NCBI GenBank assembly: GCA_028689435.1
Contig: JAQTWD010000001.1
Span: 96 to 64,095, forward strand
Length of the DNA stretch: 64,000 nt
Direction: 5' to 3'
Source of the DNA: Minisyncoccota bacterium
GTDB lineage: Bacteria; Patescibacteriota; Minisyncoccia; Phycocordibacterales; UBA12079
Shown: positions 19,571-27,072 of the stretch, one piece after another
How positions within the stretch are numbered: the first letter of the stretch is position 1
How the letters are laid out: each line of letters starts with the position of its first letter
Position numbers and translations under genes: made by a program
The notes under the pieces: model-generated
Databases searched by the model: none
The model's input: the letters and a program-made list of their open reading frames with translations, nothing else
What the model was told of the DNA's origin: nothing

Positions 19571-21586
19571 TTATTTTATTTTTTGATTAAGTAAATTTTC
19601 CCTAATTTTATCACGATAAAAATTATAGGACAACAAAACGACAACAAACAATAATAAGGCAATTTTCCAATCAAAAATCTTTAACCAGTAATATTTTGAT
19701 TTAAGCTCAATATTCATATGAACACCTCTACCGCTCTCAACCTGAAAATATTCACTTTCATAAACAGAATATCCTTTTGCTTCAGCTTTCAAGTAATACA
19801 TTCCCTCTGGAACCAAAAATGAATATTTGCCTGTAACATCCGTGGTCTGAGGATTTTCTTGTTGATATTCTTTTGCTGGCCATAACACATATTCGTTTGT
19901 GTTTGAATCAAGACGATATATAGAAACAACAACATCAGGAATACGGATTTCCTTTTTGCCAAATTTCTCATAAACATAACCTTCCGGATCAACGACAGCA
20001 ATCAATCTTATTTCTTTTCTGCCCAATTCTTCATCATAAAAATCAAGTACAGTGATAATTTCATATTCACCCTCAACTACGGGCATTTGAATCTCTGCGG
20101 TGTAAATTCCATCCGAATCTGGATCAGTATATTCAAATTCAAGTAATACAAGTTTATTTTCAATTTCTACAATTTCTTTTTGTTCACGAGCAAACACTGG
20201 GTCAGAAAAAACAACAGAGGCCATCAATTCTTGAATTGGAAATGATAATTTTGAAATAATCCCATTCTCGTTGTCAGATTTTGAAATATGATTTTGTGGT
20301 TTTAAAACGACATAACCACGAACACTTTTCACAGGATTTTCTGGTTTAACTGTTAACTGCAAAGGTTTTCCAGAAATCGTCGTTATTTTTTGTTCAATTC
20401 TATTTTTATCATTAAGTGATAAAACTATATCAAAATCAATCATATGTCCAGATGTTTTTGCAAAAACTATTTCCGTAGGAATCTTTTTTTTCTCTTCTAA
20501 GGTCAATTCGCCAATGGGTAAACCTTTCGTCTTGGCAAGAGAAGGTAAAATTAATTTTGCCTCTCTCAATTTTTCAATGTCAGTAAGTTTACGAACACCT
20601 ACTTCTTCAAGAGTTTTTTCAAACTCGGGGAATTTTTGTGCCAAAACTCTAATCTCTTTTGGTAAAGGCGCTAAAACAAATTTTTCAAGAGCAAATGAAG
20701 ACATTAAATCCCATTGTCCTCTCATAGACAAAGGAGTATCTTTTGAAACTAATTTATCAACTGTTTCTTCTGTTTTATCAGTATTAAAAATATTCCAAAT
20801 CGTACCTATAATAGGTGTTTTTTTGATACCTTCAGTAATTTTTTTTGCAACATCACGAGTCACATCTTGAATATCCTTAAAAACATCTTCTAAAATTTCA
20901 GGAACATTCGGAACAATTTCTTCAACAAAATTATTTGGATTTGGAATCAATCCAGAAATAATGCCTCCTCCAAAAACAGGATCTGTCTCGTCATTATCTT
21001 CCAAAGAACCACAACCCTGATCGTTTGGATAATCCACAAGTCCGTCATTGTCATCGTCAAGAGAATTGTTACACTGAGATCTTGCACTTATTGGTCTCCA
21101 ATCTGTTTTTATTTTGTAATCAACAGAACTACAAGAGTCTGTGGTAATACAATTAAAAACAATCCATCCCGTGCTTTCACTATATGCATAACCTGAAAAA
21201 TTACCAGATGTATCAATAGTTACTCCTCCATAATCAGGATTAAAATTTATCCAACCGGTATTTTCACTCCACGCATAACCTGACAAATTTCCATATCCAT
21301 CATTTTCAACAGCATAATCAACAGATGAACAGGAATTATCATTTGAACAATTTAAAGAAACCCAACCAATATTTTCACCCCAAAAATAACCTGTTAAACC
21401 AGAATCACTTACAACTATGTTTCCTTCGCTCGTTCCAAAATTTAACCATCCAACATTTTCTGACCATGCATATTTATAAATAGGATCAACAACACCACTC
21501 GTTGAAGAAGCCAAAGCATCACCACCAAAAGAAATCAGAAAAAACGAAACGAACACTAATAAAGTAATTTTAATATTCTTTTTCAT
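19571..21586 (-). CDS. large secreted repeat protein with C-terminal carboxypeptidase-regulatory-like domain and TM anchor
   Basis: The track frame opens at 21649; the likely start is MKKNIKITLL at 21586. Four GY(A/F)WSEN(V/I/T)GW(L/V/I)NF-type repeats, VTGKYSFLVPEGMYYLKAEAKGY, and a C-terminal TM helix. Confidence 0.7.
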   Translation of the reverse strand: MKKNIKITLLVFVSFFLISFGGDALASSTSGVVDPIYKYAWSENVGWLNFGTSEGNIVVSDSGLTGYFWGENIGWVSLNCSNDNSCSSVDYAVENDGYGNLSGYAWSENTGWINFNPDYGGVTIDTSGNFSGYAYSESTGWIVFNCITTDSCSSVDYKIKTDWRPISARSQCNNSLDDDNDGLVDYPNDQGCGSLEDNDETDPVFGGGIISGLIPNPNNFVEEIVPNVPEILEDVFKDIQDVTRDVAKKITEGIKKTPIIGTIWNIFNTDKTEETVDKLVSKDTPLSMRGQWDLMSSFALEKFVLAPLPKEIRVLAQKFPEFEKTLEEVGVRKLTDIEKLREAKLILPSLAKTKGLPIGELTLEEKKKIPTEIVFAKTSGHMIDFDIVLSLNDKNRIEQKITTISGKPLQLTVKPENPVKSVRGYVVLKPQNHISKSDNENGIISKLSFPIQELMASVVFSDPVFAREQKEIVEIENKLVLLEFEYTDPDSDGIYTAEIQMPVVEGEYEIITVLDFYDEELGRKEIRLIAVVDPEGYVYEKFGKKEIRIPDVVVSIYRLDSNTNEYVLWPAKEYQQENPQTTDVTGKYSFLVPEGMYYLKAEAKGYSVYESEYFQVESGRGVHMNIELKSKYYWLKIFDWKIALLLFVVVLLSYNFYRDKIRENLLNQKIK

Positions 21587-21661
21587 AATCATAACAATTA
21601 TTGATATTGTAACATAAATAATAAATCTAAAACAAACAATTATCACCAAAAAAATATACCT

Positions 21662-22891
21662 GTGGATAATTCAAATATTACAAATAAACACAAAAAAGAG
21701 TGCCGAAAACAAGATTTATTCTCATTTAGAAATCTTTTAAAAGCATATTATCAATGCAGAAAAAGAAAAAGAAAGACGGTCAACGCATCAAAATTTGAAC
21801 TTGATTTTGAGAATGAATTATTAAGACTTGAAAAAGAACTAACGAACAAAACATACAAAATAGGTAATTCTATCTGTTTTGTTGTAACATATCCAACACC
21901 ACGAGAAATATTTGCGGCAGATTTTAAAGACAGAATTGTGCACCATCTTTTTATAAACCATATAGAAAAAATCTGGAATAAAAAATTTATTCATCATTCT
22001 TATGCTTGCAGAAAAAACAAAGGAGCACATGAAGCTATCAAAGATTTAAGAAAAACTCTCAGAAAAATAAGCTGTGATTTTTCCTGCCCTGTATATTATT
22101 TACAAGTTGATATTTCTGCATTTTTTATGTCTTTAAAAAAAGATATTCTTTTTGATTTAATTTGCAAACACTTAAAAAATCCTCAATTATTATGGCTAGC
22201 AAAACAAATTATTTTTCACGATCCAACCAAAGATTTTTATTGCAAAAGTGATAAAAAACTTTTTGAATTAATTCCAGACCATAAATCGCTTTTTAAAGTA
22301 CCTTGTAGACAAGGACTTCCTATTGGAAATCTTACATCTCAATTTTTTGCAAATATATATATGAATGAGCTAGACCAATTTGCCAAACACAATCTAAAAA
22401 TAAAATATTATTTTCGTTATGTTGATGATATTTTAATAATTGATGAAGATCCAAAACAACTAGAAAATTGGAAGAATCAAATAAATATTTTTCTCAAAAC
22501 AAAATTAGAAATTCACTTGCATCCAAAAAAATCAAAATTAAGATCTATTTATAAAGGAATAAATTTTGTCGGATTTATTATAAAACCAAATTATTTGATT
22601 ATTAGAAAAAGAACAATATCAAATTTAAAAAGAAAATTGTGGCAATTTAATCAATTTTTTGTAAAAAAAGATTATATTATTTCAAAAAATCAACTTGAAA
22701 AAATTTTGGCCGTTATCAATTCTTATTATGGACATTTTAAACATGCAAATACTTACAATCTTAAGAAATCTATTTATCAAAAACATTTTAAAAAATTAGA
22801 AAAATATATTGTACCCGCAAATGAAAATTTTGATTATTTTGAATTAAAATCTTCTCACACTACAAAAAATAGTTTTAGCAAAAATAAATAA
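21662..22891 (+). CDS. diversity-generating retroelement reverse transcriptase
   Basis: 409 aa. PREIFAADFKDRIVHHL, QGLPIGNLTSQFFANIY (DGR-type IGNxxSQ rather than group-II QGxxxSP), catalytic YVDD. TR and VR lie within 3.5 kb. Confidence 0.85.
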   Translation: MDNSNITNKHKKECRKQDLFSFRNLLKAYYQCRKRKRKTVNASKFELDFENELLRLEKELTNKTYKIGNSICFVVTYPTPREIFAADFKDRIVHHLFINHIEKIWNKKFIHHSYACRKNKGAHEAIKDLRKTLRKISCDFSCPVYYLQVDISAFFMSLKKDILFDLICKHLKNPQLLWLAKQIIFHDPTKDFYCKSDKKLFELIPDHKSLFKVPCRQGLPIGNLTSQFFANIYMNELDQFAKHNLKIKYYFRYVDDILIIDEDPKQLENWKNQINIFLKTKLEIHLHPKKSKLRSIYKGINFVGFIIKPNYLIIRKRTISNLKRKLWQFNQFFVKKDYIISKNQLEKILAVINSYYGHFKHANTYNLKKSIYQKHFKKLEKYIVPANENFDYFELKSSHTTKNSFSKNK

Positions 22892-22931
22892 AATATTTAT
22901 CAAGTTTATATTTATATAATTTTTAAAAAAA

Positions 22932-22967
22932 TGTTTAAAAATGTAGCGGTCGCGATTTTTTTAAACA
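22932..22967. repeat. hairpin TGTTTAAAAATGTAGC-GGTC-GCGATTTTTTTAAACA
   Basis: First of three near-identical hairpins partitioning the DGR locus (also 23614 and 24171). Confidence 0.7.
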
Positions 22968-23003
22968 AATCGGGAAATACCAGATTACAAAACATACTTA
23001 TTT

Positions 23004-23564
23004 TTAATCAATATCAAAAATCTCTTTTAACCACTTATCATTTTCTAGTTTATCAACAGTCATATAAAGCACATCTTTTCCAAGAAACAAATTAGATTTC
23101 ATTAATATTACTAGTTCTTCACAATCATAAGGAAATATCCAAACACTGTTTTGTAATTTAACAAAACCCAACCTGTCCAATGCAGATCTTAATATATGCC
23201 TTGTTCCTTTTCTACTTTCTTTTATATCAAACATCACCACTCGCCATTTTTTATCCCACCTTTTTGGTTTTTTTATTTCTAAATCTCCTATTTCATATTT
23301 AGCCAACTGTTCTTTCCCTTTTTCTGTTATGCGTAGAAATTTTTTTCCGTTTTTTTCCTCCCAAATCAAATTTCCTTTTTGAATAAGATTTTTTATTGAT
23401 TTATTTAGATAATTTTTTCTATTTCTGGTATCTTTTGAAAACTGTTTAAAAACTTGCAAAATATTTGGTGCCAAAACAGCAATACTGATTAGCCCAACTG
23501 TCGCAACTGTTGTCAAAACTATTTTTTGAATATTTAAATTATTTTTTACTTTTTGATTATTCAT
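23004..23564 (-). CDS. PaaX-like / Cas2-fold domain protein with N-terminal TM helix and winged-helix segment
   Basis: 186 aa. KRWDKKWRVVMFDIKESRKGTRHILRSALDRLGFVKLQNSVWIFP resembles the PaaX C-terminal (Cas2-like) domain. Paralog at 55360..55911. Confidence 0.55.
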   Translation of the reverse strand: MNNQKVKNNLNIQKIVLTTVATVGLISIAVLAPNILQVFKQFSKDTRNRKNYLNKSIKNLIQKGNLIWEEKNGKKFLRITEKGKEQLAKYEIGDLEIKKPKRWDKKWRVVMFDIKESRKGTRHILRSALDRLGFVKLQNSVWIFPYDCEELVILMKSNLFLGKDVLYMTVDKLENDKWLKEIFDID

Positions 23565-23613
23565 GATTATTATTGCGGTTACTATTATTACTATAATAAG
23601 TATACTAAAAAGG

Positions 23614-23649
23614 TGTTTAAAAATGTAGCGGTCGTTATTTTTTTAAACA
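23614..23649. repeat. hairpin TGTTTAAAAATGTAGC-GGTC-GTTATTTTTTTAAACA
   Basis: Second DGR-locus hairpin, upstream of the PaaX-like gene start. Confidence 0.7.
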
Positions 23650-23839
23650 ATATATTTTATATTTTATTATTATTTATTATATATACTTTATTTTAAACAC
23701 CTTATCTTTTATTTGTTTCCGAAAACATTCTATTTTAGATTTGATTTTAGACATTTTTTATAAATTTAAAATATTTTAATTTTCTTGAAAGAGCCGAGTT
23801 TTTATAAAATTTAGAGCATTTTTATTAAAATTATAATAA

Positions 23840-23976
23840 CCTAGCGAACACAACGAGAATCGTTCGCGTTAGTCTTAGCATTGTTGTTCGTGTTCCCGTT
23901 GTTCAAGTTCGTGTTCCAAGCATTCTGAGTAGCGTTAGATTGAGTAGTAGCAGACCAATAGTTGTTGGCGGCGTGG
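23840..23976 (-). repeat. DGR template repeat (TR)
   Basis: 137 nt aligning to 24875-25011. All 13 differences are plus-strand T in TR, which is A on the functional minus strand. The TR reading frame is rich in AAC/AAT codons. Confidence 0.9.
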
Positions 23977-24170
23977 ATTATTTCACTATTTGAAACATAA
24001 CCAAATTAATCTTTATCTAAACAAAGTATAATTTGAAAAAACTTTATACTTATTTAATTTATAAAATAAGTAAGTGAAATCGTGATTAAAATTTTAGCTC
24101 TCTTTTGATGTTCTCAAACAATCAAAACTCTGGCTCTTTCAAAAAAATTATTTTTTAGAATATATTATTA

Positions 24171-24206
24171 TGTTTAAAGATGCAGCAGTCGCAATTTTTT
24201 TAAACA
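24171..24206. repeat. hairpin TGTTTAAAGATGCAGCA-GTC-GCAATTTTTTAAACA
   Basis: Third DGR-locus hairpin, between TR and avd. Confidence 0.65.
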
Positions 24207-24461
24207 TCTTTAATTTAATTAAGCATTATTTAAAATTAAAAGTGTGACTATATTTATGTGGATTGCTTCGTGGTACTGCTTCAAATTTTTTCTCAAAAAA
24301 TTTGAAGTGCTCGCAAAGACGGGGGGATTCGTCGTCTTCGCGAGGAGTGGAACGAAGTGGAGCGACGAAGCGATCCACGTCGTTTGTGTTTTGGGTTCTG
24401 TGATTTGTTTGGTCATCTTTGGAATTTGTGTTTTGTGTTTTGTGTTTCTTCTTGAATTACT

Positions 24462-24824
24462 TCACTGCATTCGCAATGATGACGAAGTAGACCACTCTTT
24501 CCATTTGTTTAGTTGTCTACCTATTTCATCTATTTTTCTAGTCAAAAATTCAAAACCTTTTTGACCCAAAATTTTTAAATCAAAACAAATTCTAATATAG
24601 ATTTTTAATTTTTCTAAAATATTTTGTGCATTTTCAAGGTACATTGTTTTATTTTTAGCAGAATTAGCTGTAACAATCAAATCTAACAAATCAATACTCG
24701 TATTTTTTATTTTCTCTCCTATTGAGTGTCTATGCATTCTTGGAAAATTATTCGCTCTTTTGTGAATTTCCAAAGTCAAATCATACGTAGATTGAAAAAT
24801 CGGTAAATGCTGATAACGAGCCAT
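24462..24824 (-). CDS. avd: DGR accessory variability determinant (Avd; four-helix-bundle, 23S-IVS-protein family)
   Basis: 120 aa. NFPRMHRHSIGEKIKNTSIDLLDLIV parallels the Bordetella phage bAvd IPRKHGVAREMF... region. Located between VR and TR as in canonical DGRs. Confidence 0.75.
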   Translation of the reverse strand: MARYQHLPIFQSTYDLTLEIHKRANNFPRMHRHSIGEKIKNTSIDLLDLIVTANSAKNKTMYLENAQNILEKLKIYIRICFDLKILGQKGFEFLTRKIDEIGRQLNKWKEWSTSSSLRMQ

Positions 24825-24874
24825 ATTTAAAATAGATAAATAATTTAAATAATAAAATTACAAAATAATAATCA

Positions 24875-25011
24875 CCTAGCGAACACAACGAGAATCGTTC
24901 GCGTTAGTCTTAGCACTGGCGTTCGTGTACCCGTTGTACAAGGGCGTGTACCAAGCATTCTGAGTAGCGCTAGATAGAGTAGCAGCAGACCAATAGGTGT
25001 AGGCGGCGTGG
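24875..25011 (-). repeat. DGR variable repeat (VR)
   Basis: 3' end of the target gene. The first 41 nt (including the stop codon) are identical to TR; 13 substitutions follow, only at TR-adenine positions. Confidence 0.9.
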
Positions 25012-26204
25012 GGAAGATTCCCCCAAGAACCATCAATATAAGCCTGCATCAATTCTTTTTGATAAGGGGCACGCCAATTACCGTCCCCTAACAATTTACA
25101 ACCTGTAATGTTTGGGGTACTTGTTGCTGTAACACACTGACAGGCATCGTCACCTGTTGCAGAACAAGCCCCAGGGTTTGCCCAAGTCCCCGGCTCCCAA
25201 CAATTGTTTACCCAAAACCAAGTATGATTTGCTCCTCCATCCAACCAATCAGACCAAATCAAACCTGTGCTATTATCTTGATAACAAATATTTCCTGAAC
25301 AAGCGGTGGAATCGCCTGTTTTACAATAATTGTTCGCAGAGGTACATTGTGTCCAAGATGCAGAAAAAGTATCTGTTGGCATAGTGGTATTGTTGTTGTA
25401 ATCGTCCACACCACCCTTGACCTGAGTATAAAAAGCATAATCAAGAACACTCGTTCCAGCAGTTCCATTTTTTTGATTAACCACAGAAAACATACTCCTA
25501 TTCTCCAAATATTCTAGTCTTTCCAAAATATTTCCATCAGCATTCGCGGTTATTGTAGTTGAGCTATACCCTGTTTGAGAAATTGCGTCTAAATGACCGG
25601 CTCTTTCATCTGTCCATGTCGTCGTTGATAGTGCCGTATCTGATGAAGGAACTTTGTCCCACAGTCTTTTAAACCAACCAAAAATAGTATCTGTGCTTGT
25701 CGCAACAGAAGAACTACCAATATTATAGGCAATACTGCCTTCAACCGGAGTTGTTGATGATGTTGAGCTGGAAACAAGAAATCTTAAATCTGAATTAATA
25801 AAATCTAGATATCCAGCTCTCGTATCTGTCCATGTTGTTGTTGAAAGAGCAGTATCAGAAGATGCTCTTGATGAAATAGTAGTATTTAGATTATCTACAA
25901 TCAATTTACCAACACTATCAACGGTGGTTAATTCGGAAACACTTTTATTCCAAATACCAGAAACCAAACCTGCTATTGAATCACTAATTGCCTCCAAACT
26001 ATCTGTTGTTCTGTCAAAAGTATTATTAACATCTTTGGCTGTCATTTCCAAAATTGTCCACATGGTAGAAGCTGGGCTGGAAGAGGGGGTCAGAGACCCT
26101 GCTCTTACAACAGTCGAAACGGCAAAAGAAGATACCAAAACAATAGCCAAGACTTTTGAAAGATTTTGTATGCCCATTTTTATAAATCTATTCTTATTTT
26201 TCAT
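24876..26204 (-). CDS. DGR target protein: secreted/anchored, C-terminal DUF1566 / C-type-lectin (FGE-like) fold
   Basis: 442 aa. N-terminal signal/TM, internal duplication SSDTALSTTTWTD(T/E)RAG(Y/H)LD, C-terminus NWRAPYQKEL...NDSRCVR carrying the VR. Confidence 0.8.
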   Translation of the reverse strand: MKNKNRFIKMGIQNLSKVLAIVLVSSFAVSTVVRAGSLTPSSSPASTMWTILEMTAKDVNNTFDRTTDSLEAISDSIAGLVSGIWNKSVSELTTVDSVGKLIVDNLNTTISSRASSDTALSTTTWTDTRAGYLDFINSDLRFLVSSSTSSTTPVEGSIAYNIGSSSVATSTDTIFGWFKRLWDKVPSSDTALSTTTWTDERAGHLDAISQTGYSSTTITANADGNILERLEYLENRSMFSVVNQKNGTAGTSVLDYAFYTQVKGGVDDYNNNTTMPTDTFSASWTQCTSANNYCKTGDSTACSGNICYQDNSTGLIWSDWLDGGANHTWFWVNNCWEPGTWANPGACSATGDDACQCVTATSTPNITGCKLLGDGNWRAPYQKELMQAYIDGSWGNLPHAAYTYWSAATLSSATQNAWYTPLYNGYTNASAKTNANDSRCVR

Positions 26205-26805: not shown

Positions 26806-26991
26806 ATGGCCGAGCAGAATTGTTTTCCGGAAGAAAGGGTTTGGATCAAGCCAACCCCTATCTGTGCAAACGAAACATGCTCGGAAGTAATCCTCCCGGG
26901 CATGAAAAAAGTCGTAGACGATGAGAGAGACGTCGTCTACTGTTCGGAGAGATGTCGTCGTCTCTCCGAAACACGCCCTGGGCGTGTATAA
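26806..26991 (+). CDS. small Cys-rich (zinc-ribbon-like) protein
   Basis: ATG at 26806 preceded by GGAGG (4 nt). 61 aa: MAEQNCF...ICANETC...YCSERC. GC-rich. Confidence 0.5.
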   Translation: MAEQNCFPEERVWIKPTPICANETCSEVILPGMKKVVDDERDVVYCSERCRRLSETRPGRV

Positions 26992-26998
26992 AATATCC

Positions 26999-27044
26999 AG
27001 CCCGACATCGCTTTTTGCAAAAAGCGATGTCGGGCTATTTTCTT
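26999..27044 (+). terminator. intrinsic terminator
   Basis: AGCCCGACATCGCTTTTT-GC-AAAAAGCGATGTCGGGCT followed by ATTTTCTTT. Confidence 0.8.
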
Positions 27045-27072
27045 TCTCTCTCACACTGCTATAATAAAGATC

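Follow-up and report, generated by a model that had tools for sequence, protein, structure and literature searches.

The prototype of the DGRs, that of Bordetella phage BPP-1 (mtd-avd-TR-brt), combines a CLec-type target carrying the VR at its 3′ end with Avd, TR and an IGxxxSQ RT, as does the locus described here, although the BPP-1 element is phage-borne whereas ours is chromosomal in a CPR bacterium. A second arrangement was described by Schillinger et al. [quoted passage not shown] 2018 and the myDGR server likewise mention this layout. ORFs nested between DGR components occur across architectures (Wu et al. 2018). From the same host group come the DGRs of CPR/Patescibacteria (Paul et al. 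2017; Wu et al. 2018, "CPR set"; Roux et al. 2021, clade 2), which share with our locus a cellular, non-viral location, an Avd cassette, secreted DUF1566/CLec-like targets and high architectural plasticity. Within the CPR set of Wu et al. 2018, however, the TR-(avd)-RT order (B3) accounts for 90%, whereas in our locus and its closest relatives the order target-avd-RNA-TR is convergent with the RT.

The window analysed here is a stretch of 64,000 nucleotides (64 kb). The four ORFs of its cassette lie where a preliminary description of this DNA had placed them, and the complete DGR that it proposed was recovered, with TR, VR, Avd, an Lcl_C/DUF1566 target and a DGR-type RT all found intact (Table 1); comparison with sister genomes strengthens the case. 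A self-BLAST scan of the whole window detected no second VR or TR. We consider it highly probable that the cassette is a genuine chromosomal DGR of a Patescibacteria (Paceibacteria/Campbellbacteria-like) bacterium, made of three separately conserved modules, with RT and Avd acting on a folded TR RNA. Module (i) would be a minus-strand operon consisting of the gene for a secreted/surface Lcl_C/DUF1566 protein, whose last 44 codons form the VR, followed by avd. Module (ii), a putative minus-strand non-coding unit of ~375 nt (24150->23777), would run from the P1 5′ arm through a ~170-nt structured domain (P2, P3, P4), the TR and a short linker to the P1 3′ arm, and module (iii) would be the plus-strand RT gene, convergent with the other two.

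Table 1. Features of the DGR cassette, in window coordinates
Feature	Position	Strand	Remarks
DGR RT	21662..22891	+	409-aa ORF; Pfam RVT_1
Palindromic 45-nt repeat, copy 1	22924..22968	.	between RT stop and gene X stop; family D4
Gene X	23004..23564	-	PaaX-like with central Cas2-like domain (Pfam PF20803 PaaX_M, 1.6e-19); weak winged-helix match
Palindromic repeat, copy 2	23606..23650	.	between TR module and gene X start
P1 3′ arm	23777..23795	-	GGCUCUUUCAAGAAAAUUA; ~31 nt past end of TR homology; inverted repeat I19
Invariant TR 3′ end, candidate IMH*	23827..23862	-	includes T at 23838
TR	23840..23976	-	non-coding in context; inside block conserved with sister genomes
Structured RNA domain	23977..24150	-	directly 5′ of TR; covariation-supported fold
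P4a	24026-24021/24016-24011	-	
P4	24033-24029/24008-24004	-	
P3	24080-24073/23987-23980	-	
P2	24127-24119/24111-24103	-	
P1 5′ arm	24150-24132	-	
Variable junction, avd to RNA module	24157..24461	-	not conserved with sister genomes
Palindromic repeat, copy 3	24163-24207		within variable junction
Promoter-like site (putative)	24194->24167	-	9/12 match, AT-rich DNA
Dispersed 63-nt repeat	24259-24321		within variable junction
avd	24462..24824	-	NCBIfam NF033474 DivGenRetAVD, 85.4 bits (cutoff 80); Pfam PF22296 bAvd, 3.5e-21
Invariant VR 3′ end, candidate IMH	24862..24897	-	includes G at 24873
VR	24875..25011	-	encodes C-terminal 44 residues of target
Target gene	24876..26204	-	442 aa; N-terminal signal/anchor-like hydrophobic segment; C-terminal Lcl_C (DUF1566)

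TR and VR were compared without gaps on the minus strand, at an offset of 1035. Re-alignment gave 137 nt with 13 mismatches, and, as had been claimed, every one of them is a coding-strand A in TR that has become C, G or T in VR; with A making up 35% of the 96-nt variable part, 13/13 mismatches would fall on A by chance with a probability of ~1.4e-6. First codon positions account for seven of the mismatches and second positions for the other six. The identity of the gene-3′ 41 nt, TAG stop included, was likewise reproduced, as was the Asn-rich TR frame, with 12 AAC codons and the translation previously given. The 137-nt alignment itself stands, but its 3′ limit does not, with homology reaching 13 nt further, to 23827/24862, and adding two more differences (23838 T vs 24873 G; 23832 A vs 24867 T). 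No mismatch between IMH and IMH* occurs inside the shared 41 nt, in agreement with the preliminary description; a fixed difference was found 4 nt past the stop codon instead. This T (TR) versus G (VR), preceded by ~24 invariant nt, is kept in 4/4 genomes, and adenine substitution 3′ of TR position 114 was seen in none of the four genomes compared. The T/G difference is a candidate IMH/IMH* discriminator. The VR stop is followed by 50 AT-rich nt up to the avd start, and these hold neither a GC-rich hairpin nor a terminator-like site. The window differs in this from BPP-1; a GC-rich inverted repeat downstream of the IMH is a homing enhancer in Bordetella and Legionella, but it is not universal and was found in only 34% of DGRs (Wu et al. 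2018).

The RT was assigned to the DGR clade by motif and structure-match scores. Both motifs previously pointed out, LPIGNLTSQ and YVDD, are present, and IGNLTSQ (residues 221-227) corresponds to the DGR RT signature [I/V/L]GxxxSQ, which stands in place of QGxxxSP (PMC7826257). Among solved structures the best match was the Bordetella phage bRT (8ub7, E 1.9e-38), compared with E 3.9e-10 for a group II intron RT, and in the alignment with 8ub7 the protein keeps the equivalents of bRT R74, I181, Q187, D138 and D215/216 (roles from PMC7826257). Its true start may lie ~17 codons downstream of the ORF start, because sister genomes annotate 392 aa. Two other RT classes were rejected: a group II intron (no Rfam intron match at E<=1; TIGR04416 104.6 bits vs a cutoff of 300) and a retron or defence-associated RT (St85 model 50 bits vs a cutoff of 235, Drt3a 53 vs 200, no Rfam retron match). 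PADLOC returned generic RT matches only. The Avd-like gene reported between VR and TR scores above the curated NF033474 cutoff. Residues 308-442 of the target, named a DUF1566 protein in one source, match Pfam PF07603 at 37.1 bits (cutoff 34.9), and the VR, taken as the C-terminus of such a protein in the preliminary description, is predicted to form its last 44 residues, inside this above-cutoff Lcl_C match.

[quoted passage not shown] The geometry is as described, with target, avd and TR on the minus strand and a convergent plus-strand RT, but the layout has been known since the descriptions of 2012 and 2018 and is usual among the closest relatives of this RT. Of 100 related loci in which a TR could be detected, 28 have it antisense to the RT and 17 have a gene order identical to that of the window, and the RT-antisense layout occurs in 5/5 loci with an RT identity of at least 60%. 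An unrelated gene indeed separates RT from TR, although nested ORFs had already been reported by Wu et al. 2018, so this feature is not new either. The RT of the window, unlike that of BPP-1, runs towards TR on the opposite strand, which precludes a transcript common to TR and RT. RT and Avd would instead each have a message of their own and work in trans on the folded TR RNA; we infer this mode of action, as well as where the transcripts end, where priming occurs and what the individual helices do. The RT would copy TR into cDNA with misincorporation opposite adenines, the mutagenised cDNA would then replace the VR, and the invariant 3′ segment, which has T in TR and G in VR shortly after the stop, could serve to tell donor (IMH*) from recipient (IMH).

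Comparison of VR variation between samples and lineages revealed ongoing TR-to-VR transfer. Among five nearly identical target proteins, which come from different samples, no two have the same VR peptide, and in the sister loci L161/L162 and L164 all 12-13 differences between a VR and its own TR fall on A, at sites that change from genome to genome and are unlike those of the window. Where the TRs of the genomes differ at non-A bases (TR positions 9, 10, 97, 100 and 127), the VR of the same genome shows the same change, and since the VR follows its own TR at these sites, transfer took place after the lineages split. Judging from these sequences, the DGR is evidently active. The alternative is a decayed relic, with a TR and a VR that date from past activity and an inverted, cut-off RT that no longer serves them; the distance of ~940-950 nt between RT and TR, the foreign gene between them and the missing hairpin after the VR would fit such decay. 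We regard this as extremely improbable, given that all ORFs are intact, the catalytic and fidelity residues of the RT are kept, the sister genomes carry other adenine-only VR variants that each track their own TR, and the conserved RNA-TR block does not include the inserted gene.

The modular conservation of the active DGR is apparent from the same genomes. Window and sister loci (~90% nucleotide identity) have only three blocks in common, namely target plus avd, 24156->23777, and the RT, and the sequence between these blocks differs. Between avd and the RNA module, the sister loci L161-163 carry a GIY-YIG gene and L164 carries a PemK gene. None of L161-L164 has gene X, which was found between TR and RT in none of the related loci and is best regarded as lineage-specific cargo rather than a DGR component. 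PaaX-family proteins are DNA-binding repressors. It is tempting to speculate that gene X and the three palindromes form a regulatory add-on, in which the protein binds the TGTTTAAA-N20-TTTAAACA inverted repeats, which flank gene X and precede the TR module, and thereby gates TR-RNA production. The three copies, the only ones in the 64 kb and all inside the cassette, sit at boundaries of its transcription units; promoter-like hexamers overlap copies 2 and 3; and the RNA hairpins are too weak for convincing terminators. We nevertheless think such a role unlikely: gene X is missing from all other related cassettes, sister genomes without it keep a partial repeat copy upstream of the target gene, its wHTH matches fall below the Pfam cutoffs, and with only three repeat copies there is no statistical case. 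We therefore place the PaaX/Cas2-like gene and all three palindromes outside the DGR core, as cargo or elements of the junctions.

Of more interest than the opposite-strand RT is the conserved folded RNA around TR. RNAalifold predicted 31 pairs in an alignment of 29 loci, 30 of them with compensatory changes, and G-U intermediates are among these changes. Paired cells amounted to 92.6%, compared with 36-48% when the partners were slid, 28/28 pairs covaried and 0/500 shuffles matched the observed value, although alignment A7 was fitted to a model already holding P2 and P4, so that the pair counts of both helices are somewhat inflated; the covariation of P3 is independent of the fitting because P3 was left out of the search model. 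The RNA plus TR module has an MFE z-score of -5.5, and P1 is present in the MFE fold. The arms of P1 are 95% complementary (RNAduplex -19.8 kcal/mol, 0/200 shuffles as good), and P1 helices of 12-21 bp with differing sequences were found in 12 loci, again with 0/200 shuffles as good. Equivalent covarying helices occur in L001, L003, L086, L090, L094, L081, L082, L088, L101 and L140; P1 is weak in L004, L005, L007 and L008, and was not detected in a subgroup with a different TR class (L011, L012, L014, L139). The RNA model (R1) has a single match in the 64-kb window. Across related loci, be they convergent, co-directional or canonical in layout, it matches directly 5′ of TR, with weak matches ending 0-66 nt before TR in the canonical ones. 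Going by these matches, the RNA module is invariant while the orientation of the RT varies. The module has no match in Rfam 15 and no mention in the DGR surveys compared, of which the structural survey covered only 40 nt upstream of TR.

Such a structure might also be an independent element travelling with TR, for instance a cis-regulatory leader, a small RNA or a DNA-level recombination or replication signal. The essential structured RNA of Bordetella sits downstream of TR (bioRxiv 10.1101/2023.10.23.563531), and the connection of RT/Avd to a 5′ structure is drawn from sequence, both of which would favour independence. We judge this very unlikely, however: whatever the layout, the structure sits against the 5′ end of TR and on its sense strand; the pairing of P1 spans TR and so joins its two flanks in a single molecule; the limits of the conserved block are those of P1; and the G-U intermediates fit RNA rather than DNA. 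Our own reading, put forward tentatively and at slightly less than an even chance, is that a large DGR family, spread over Patescibacteria and many further phyla and with RTs at least 38% identical to that of the window, recruits RT and Avd through an RNA organised unlike that of Bordetella. Its core would be the covarying ~170-nt domain 5′ of TR (P2-P3-P4), with the conserved strings GCCAGAGU, AGNGNGC and AUAC...GAUUG, and in the convergent subgroup a 12-21-bp P1 closes around this domain plus TR, giving a self-contained RNA-TR module. If true, this would explain why the element keeps working when its RT gene is inverted, relocated or set apart by cargo.

Compared with the published inverted DGRs, described as rare and known from Shewanella, Vibrio and Photobacterium, the present locus belongs to Patescibacteria and its layout is common in its RT subclade; relative to other CPR DGRs, the PaaX-like gene is an extra of the window lineage. 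The Bordetella-type RNA (avd 3′ segment - TR - Sp) has its primer and RT/Avd-binding elements in the spacer immediately 3′ of TR. Here, the linker between TR and P1 does not align and shows no conserved template:primer duplex. P1 does pair across TR, but its 5′ strand is ~155 nt upstream rather than adjacent, and the equivalence to the Bordetella RNA is positional only. In relatives with the same layout, the 3′ end of TR is only 3-54 nt from the stop of the convergent RT and the conserved structure is 5′ of TR. Where Bordetella has a structured spacer of ~140 nt 3′ of TR, the window has a structured RNA of ~170 nt 5′ of it.

Re-alignment of the template repeat (TR) with the variable repeat (VR) gave an ungapped alignment with 13 mismatches, and at all 13 VR has C, G or T where TR has A, just as the preliminary description had read them. 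The chance of 13 out of 13 mismatches falling on A is about 1.4e-6 (96-nt variable part, 35% A). The G+C content of the window is 34%. The substitutions are confined to codon positions 1 or 2, TR contains 12 AAC codons, and the homology extends 13 nt beyond the stop codon, ending at 23827/24862, with two further differences in this extension. Whole-window self-comparison revealed no second TR/VR pair, and no second VR was detected elsewhere in the window.

The ORF positions proposed for the cassette were confirmed, as were the assignments of the gene between VR and TR to Avd and of the target to the DUF1566 proteins (see the table). The reverse transcriptase (RT), identical to a protein from a Candidatus Pacebacteria/Paceibacterota MAG (P0001), is likewise of the DGR type, with the Bordetella phage enzyme bRT as its top solved relative. 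Alignment to bRT showed that the catalytic aspartates and the IGxxxSQ motif are retained, together with the counterparts of bRT R74 and I181, residues that promote adenine mutagenesis (PMC7826257). Membership of the group II intron, retron or DRT families was ruled out by family cutoffs and context, the RT scoring far under the cutoff of each of the group II intron, retron and Drt3a models. A PADLOC search with the RT, Avd and gene X, the ORF between TR and RT, returned nothing but generic RT and weak Cas2 matches.

Features of the cassette in the window
Feature	Position	Strand	Evidence or remark
RT	21662..22891	+	RVT_1; closest solved structure Bordetella phage bRT (8ub7), E 1.9e-38, versus 3.9e-10 for group II intron RTs
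Palindromic repeat, 45 nt	22924-22968, 23606-23650, 24163-24207		Cassette unit boundaries; none elsewhere in the 64 kb
Gene X	23004..23564	-	PaaX central Cas2-like domain (1.6e-19), weak winged-helix matches
TR	23976->23840	-	
RNA domain, covariance model R1	23977-24148	-	Single match in the window
Closing helix P1	24150-24132 with 23795-23777		5' arm just 5' of conserved GCCAGAGU
avd	24462..24824	-	NCBIfam DGR-Avd model, 85.4 bits (curated cutoff 80); Pfam bAvd
Target	24876..26204	-	Pfam Lcl_C (DUF1566) at residues 308-442, over the gathering score
VR	25011->24875	-	

Two repeat-bearing genes were noted in passing. The N-terminal half of the target gene holds an internal 59-nt direct repeat (25588-25646 / 25804-25862, 76% identity) encoding a duplicated SSDTALSTTTWTD-RAG-LD segment. 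Next to the RT, a 692-aa secreted protein (19571-21649, minus strand) with a C-terminal CarboxypepD_reg-like domain carries four repeats of about 49 nt (21152-21482) that encode a (Y/F)AWSEN.GW(I/L/V)NF-like motif, one copy being more diverged; it also adjoins the RT in sister genomes (L161 8655-, L164 8373-).

Evidence for activity comes from close relatives of the locus. The 90% identity cluster of the target protein has five full-length members from different samples, which are 92-94% identical overall and end in five different C-terminal peptides, the changes concentrating at Asn and other A-containing codons of TR. DNA was compared for sister loci (L161-L164) from two members of this cluster. 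Within each genome, the coding part of VR differs from its own TR at adenines only, at 12-13 sites, and the window, L161/L162 and L164 each have a different set of mutated sites. Where the TRs of these genomes differ at non-adenine positions (9, 10, 97, 100 and 127), the VR of the same genome carries the change as well, which requires TR-to-VR transfer after the lineages diverged. With TR and VR, Avd, an Lcl_C target and a DGR-type RT all present, as first claimed, the locus is a real and complete DGR and, on this comparison, evidently an active one.

The sister genomes also refine the 3' end of the repeats. The 3'-terminal 41 nt, TAG included, do not differ between TR and VR of the window and so contain no IMH*/IMH mismatch between donor and recipient, as originally noted. 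Mutated adenines reach TR position 114 in the sisters, however, so the truly invariant segment shrinks from 41 to about 24 nt. In four of four genomes, the position four nucleotides past the stop codon is T in TR and G in VR; judged by these genomes, donor and recipient show here a fixed difference of the IMH*/IMH type, lying just beyond the stretch in which none had been seen.

The RT on the strand opposite to TR, avd and target had been regarded as unusual. This inverted layout is already in the literature (Schillinger et al., 2012, PMC3521204; Wu et al., 2018, who catalogued 48 DGR architectures), and myDGR explicitly provides for it. We scored 160 loci encoding relatives of the RT for TR/VR pairs and Avd, and TR was detectable in 100. 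The exact order of the window occurs in 17 of these 100; TR lies antisense and downstream of the RT with avd placed differently in 10 more, and antisense and upstream in one. Six have target-RT-TR-avd on one strand throughout, while the canonical avd-TR-RT accounts for most of the more distant loci. All five loci with RT identity of at least 60% (L001, L002, L081, L082, L088) are convergent, as judged by TR or the RNA model. The inverted architecture is thus known and typical of this RT clade. That TR and RT cannot share one transcript is shown by geometry alone, as previously argued; the RT presumably works in trans, which is not a new point.

At least four other gene orders are found among close relatives of the RT (L004-L008, L083-L085; L013, L017, L033, L093, L096; L015, L028, L042, L116, L120), including target-RT-RNA-TR-avd with everything on the same strand, RT-avd with antisense TR-VR after it, and RT with antisense avd-TR-VR after it. 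Some distant relatives, among them L019 (3255-4627, 7317-9197) and L079, have two tandem copies of avd-RT or avd within 5 kb, a single TR serving VRs several kb apart. Across this RT clade, cassette order is very plastic, while RNA-TR is kept as a unit.

The wide spacing of RT and TR, also remarked on at the outset, proved exceptional: TR ends 3-54 nt from the RT stop in same-layout relatives, with one outlier at 330 nt (L089), against about 940 nt in the window. The gene lying in this gap did not turn out to be part of the system. No homologue of gene X was found inside the cassette of any of the 160 related loci (the sole match, in L004, is 4 kb off), and it is absent from all sister loci. 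The window and the sister loci (about 90% nucleotide identity) have only three blocks in common, namely target plus avd, a middle block (24156->23777) and the RT; what separates the blocks in the window is gene X and 305 nt of unrelated sequence. The junction of avd with the middle block is occupied by a GIY-YIG gene in L161-L163 (5686-5976, 5658-5948 and 4974-5264, respectively) and by a PemK toxin gene in L164 (4703-5149), and direct reading revealed ORFs resembling GIY-YIG between avd and TR in both L089 and L092. The avd/RNA-TR junction is a recurrent insertion site for different small selfish genes in close and more distant relatives. Gene X is one of those gathered at the cassette junctions, a lineage-specific cargo; these junctions take up GIY-YIG, PemK and PaaX-like genes with the RNA-TR unit undisturbed.

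Direct reading of the avd-TR spacers of same-layout relatives revealed common strings and hairpins that keep their pairing as the sequence changes. A first RNAalifold structure (MAFFT alignment, 12 loci) contained 23 pairs, 20 of them compensatory, and from it we built covariance model R1, which matched 60 loci besides the window. All matches are TR-sense and sit immediately 5' of TR, whether the RT is convergent, lies upstream in the same orientation (L004-L008, L083-L085) or has its place in the canonical avd-RNA-TR-RT order, where matches are weaker (20-40 bits) and end 0-66 nt before TR. On the 29 strong matches, RNAalifold predicted 31 pairs, and compensatory changes were seen in 30 of them. 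Four helices comprising 28 pairs had 92.6% of their cells paired, compared with 36-48% when partners were slid by 1-3 columns; double changes occurred in all 28, and none of 500 shuffles reached the observed values. Because helix P3 was absent from the model behind this alignment, the support for it does not depend on model fitting.

A long-range helix, P1, closes around the RNA domain and TR. Its 3' site lies 16-35 nt beyond the TR end, and it is 12-21 bp long. In a full-length MAFFT alignment of RNA, TR and flank, unequal linker lengths put the P1 3' arms out of place, and P1 was therefore tested one locus at a time with RNAduplex against shuffles. None of 200 shuffles matched or bettered it in 12 loci (the window, L001, L003, L006, L081, L082, L086, L088, L090, L094, L101 and L140); it was near-significant in four more, its sequence varying from locus to locus, and was not detected in a subgroup with a different TR class (L011, L012, L014, L139). 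The minimum-energy structure of the 387-nt module contains P1 (z-score -5.5), and the ends of P1 are those of the block conserved with the sister genomes. On this modelling, the middle block consists of a structured RNA and TR, and the locus comparison shows a portable RNA-TR unit with boundaries set by the covarying P1.

Rfam 15 has no match at the RNA element (region at E<=1; 10 related loci at E<=0.1). The search returned only two tRNAs in L140 and a sub-threshold match of MIR4359, on both strands, to a palindrome at 26990-27045 (about 30 bits; gathering score 75). This palindrome is almost certainly either a hairpin arisen by chance or a terminator separating convergent or divergent genes. 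RNA structure is not discussed in Wu 2018 or Roux 2021, and DGRs receive no more than passing mention in a 2026 preprint on the mining of non-coding elements. The conserved RNA-TR module may be an undescribed arrangement of DGR RNA.

How the module is transcribed can be read in two ways. A sequence resembling a promoter (TTGCGA-16-CATAAT, 24194->24167) is found immediately 5' of P1, but such matches are common in the AT-rich DNA of the window (39 observed versus 27 expected). The P1 5' arm starts at the avd stop in L001 and similar relatives, making read-through from target-avd equally possible.

In sister genomes, the palindromic repeat (45-63 nt, core TGTTTAAA-N20-TTTAAACA, three copies in the window) recurs as a partial copy upstream of the target gene (L164 2235-2315; L161 3472-3507). 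As intrinsic terminators the palindromes were rejected, with hairpins of -5 to -9 kcal/mol, z of -1 to -2.2 and an empty terminator scan there; such weak RNA hairpins seem to fit a protein-binding site or a small mobile repeat better. The avd-RNA spacer of the window holds a further 63-65-nt segment (24259-24321) with a perfect 13-bp hairpin (CTTCAAATTTTTT/AAAAAATTTGAAG), 97-98% identical to a segment upstream of the sister target genes (L161 3382-3444, L162 3352-3416, L163 2668-2732). This exceeds the roughly 90% identity of the surrounding genes and suggests a dispersed or recently moved repeat. A local G+C-rich patch (24300-24380, minus strand) with alternative hairpins TTCGTCG.../...CGACGAA and CTCGCGAAGACG/CGTCTTTGCGAG lies outside the conserved module and overlaps a 65-aa ORF (24219..24416) that is probably spurious.

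As a locus, this is one more well-documented CPR DGR with evident activity, not new in kind, and natural diversification of a secreted DUF1566 lectin-like protein is not new either. Most worth following is the conserved RNA-TR module, and the wider comparison, with its portable unit and junction cargo, is more useful than the single DGR. We propose that the 5' domain is a putative docking RNA for RT-Avd and that cDNA synthesis may be bounded by P3, which abuts TR. If the domain does have this docking role, it would give those engineering DGR-based mutagenesis a second natural template with a different arrangement, and the covariance model would be a simple annotation marker that finds TRs and their strand directly.

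In the Bordetella phage DGR, cDNA synthesis depends on RNA on both sides of TR; the ~140-nt spacer 3' of TR envelops bRT, overlies Avd and supplies the primer strand, and its pairing with the 3' segment of avd, which lies upstream of TR, yields the "cPRT Stop" duplex (bioRxiv 10.1101/2023.10.23.563531). Putative duplexes of this type, with a mean of 13 bp, were reported in 207 DGRs, for which 40 nt upstream and 100 nt downstream of TR were examined (bioRxiv 10.1101/2023.10.23.563531). A template:primer duplex like Bordetella TR:Sp was not conserved when the TR 3' end and linker were aligned, the linker itself failing to align, and the relatives have no space for a 3' spacer unless it is antisense to the RT gene. 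P1 is a positional analogue of the cPRT Stop duplex, whereas the large structured domain lies 5' of TR here and the Bordetella spacer lies 3' of it.
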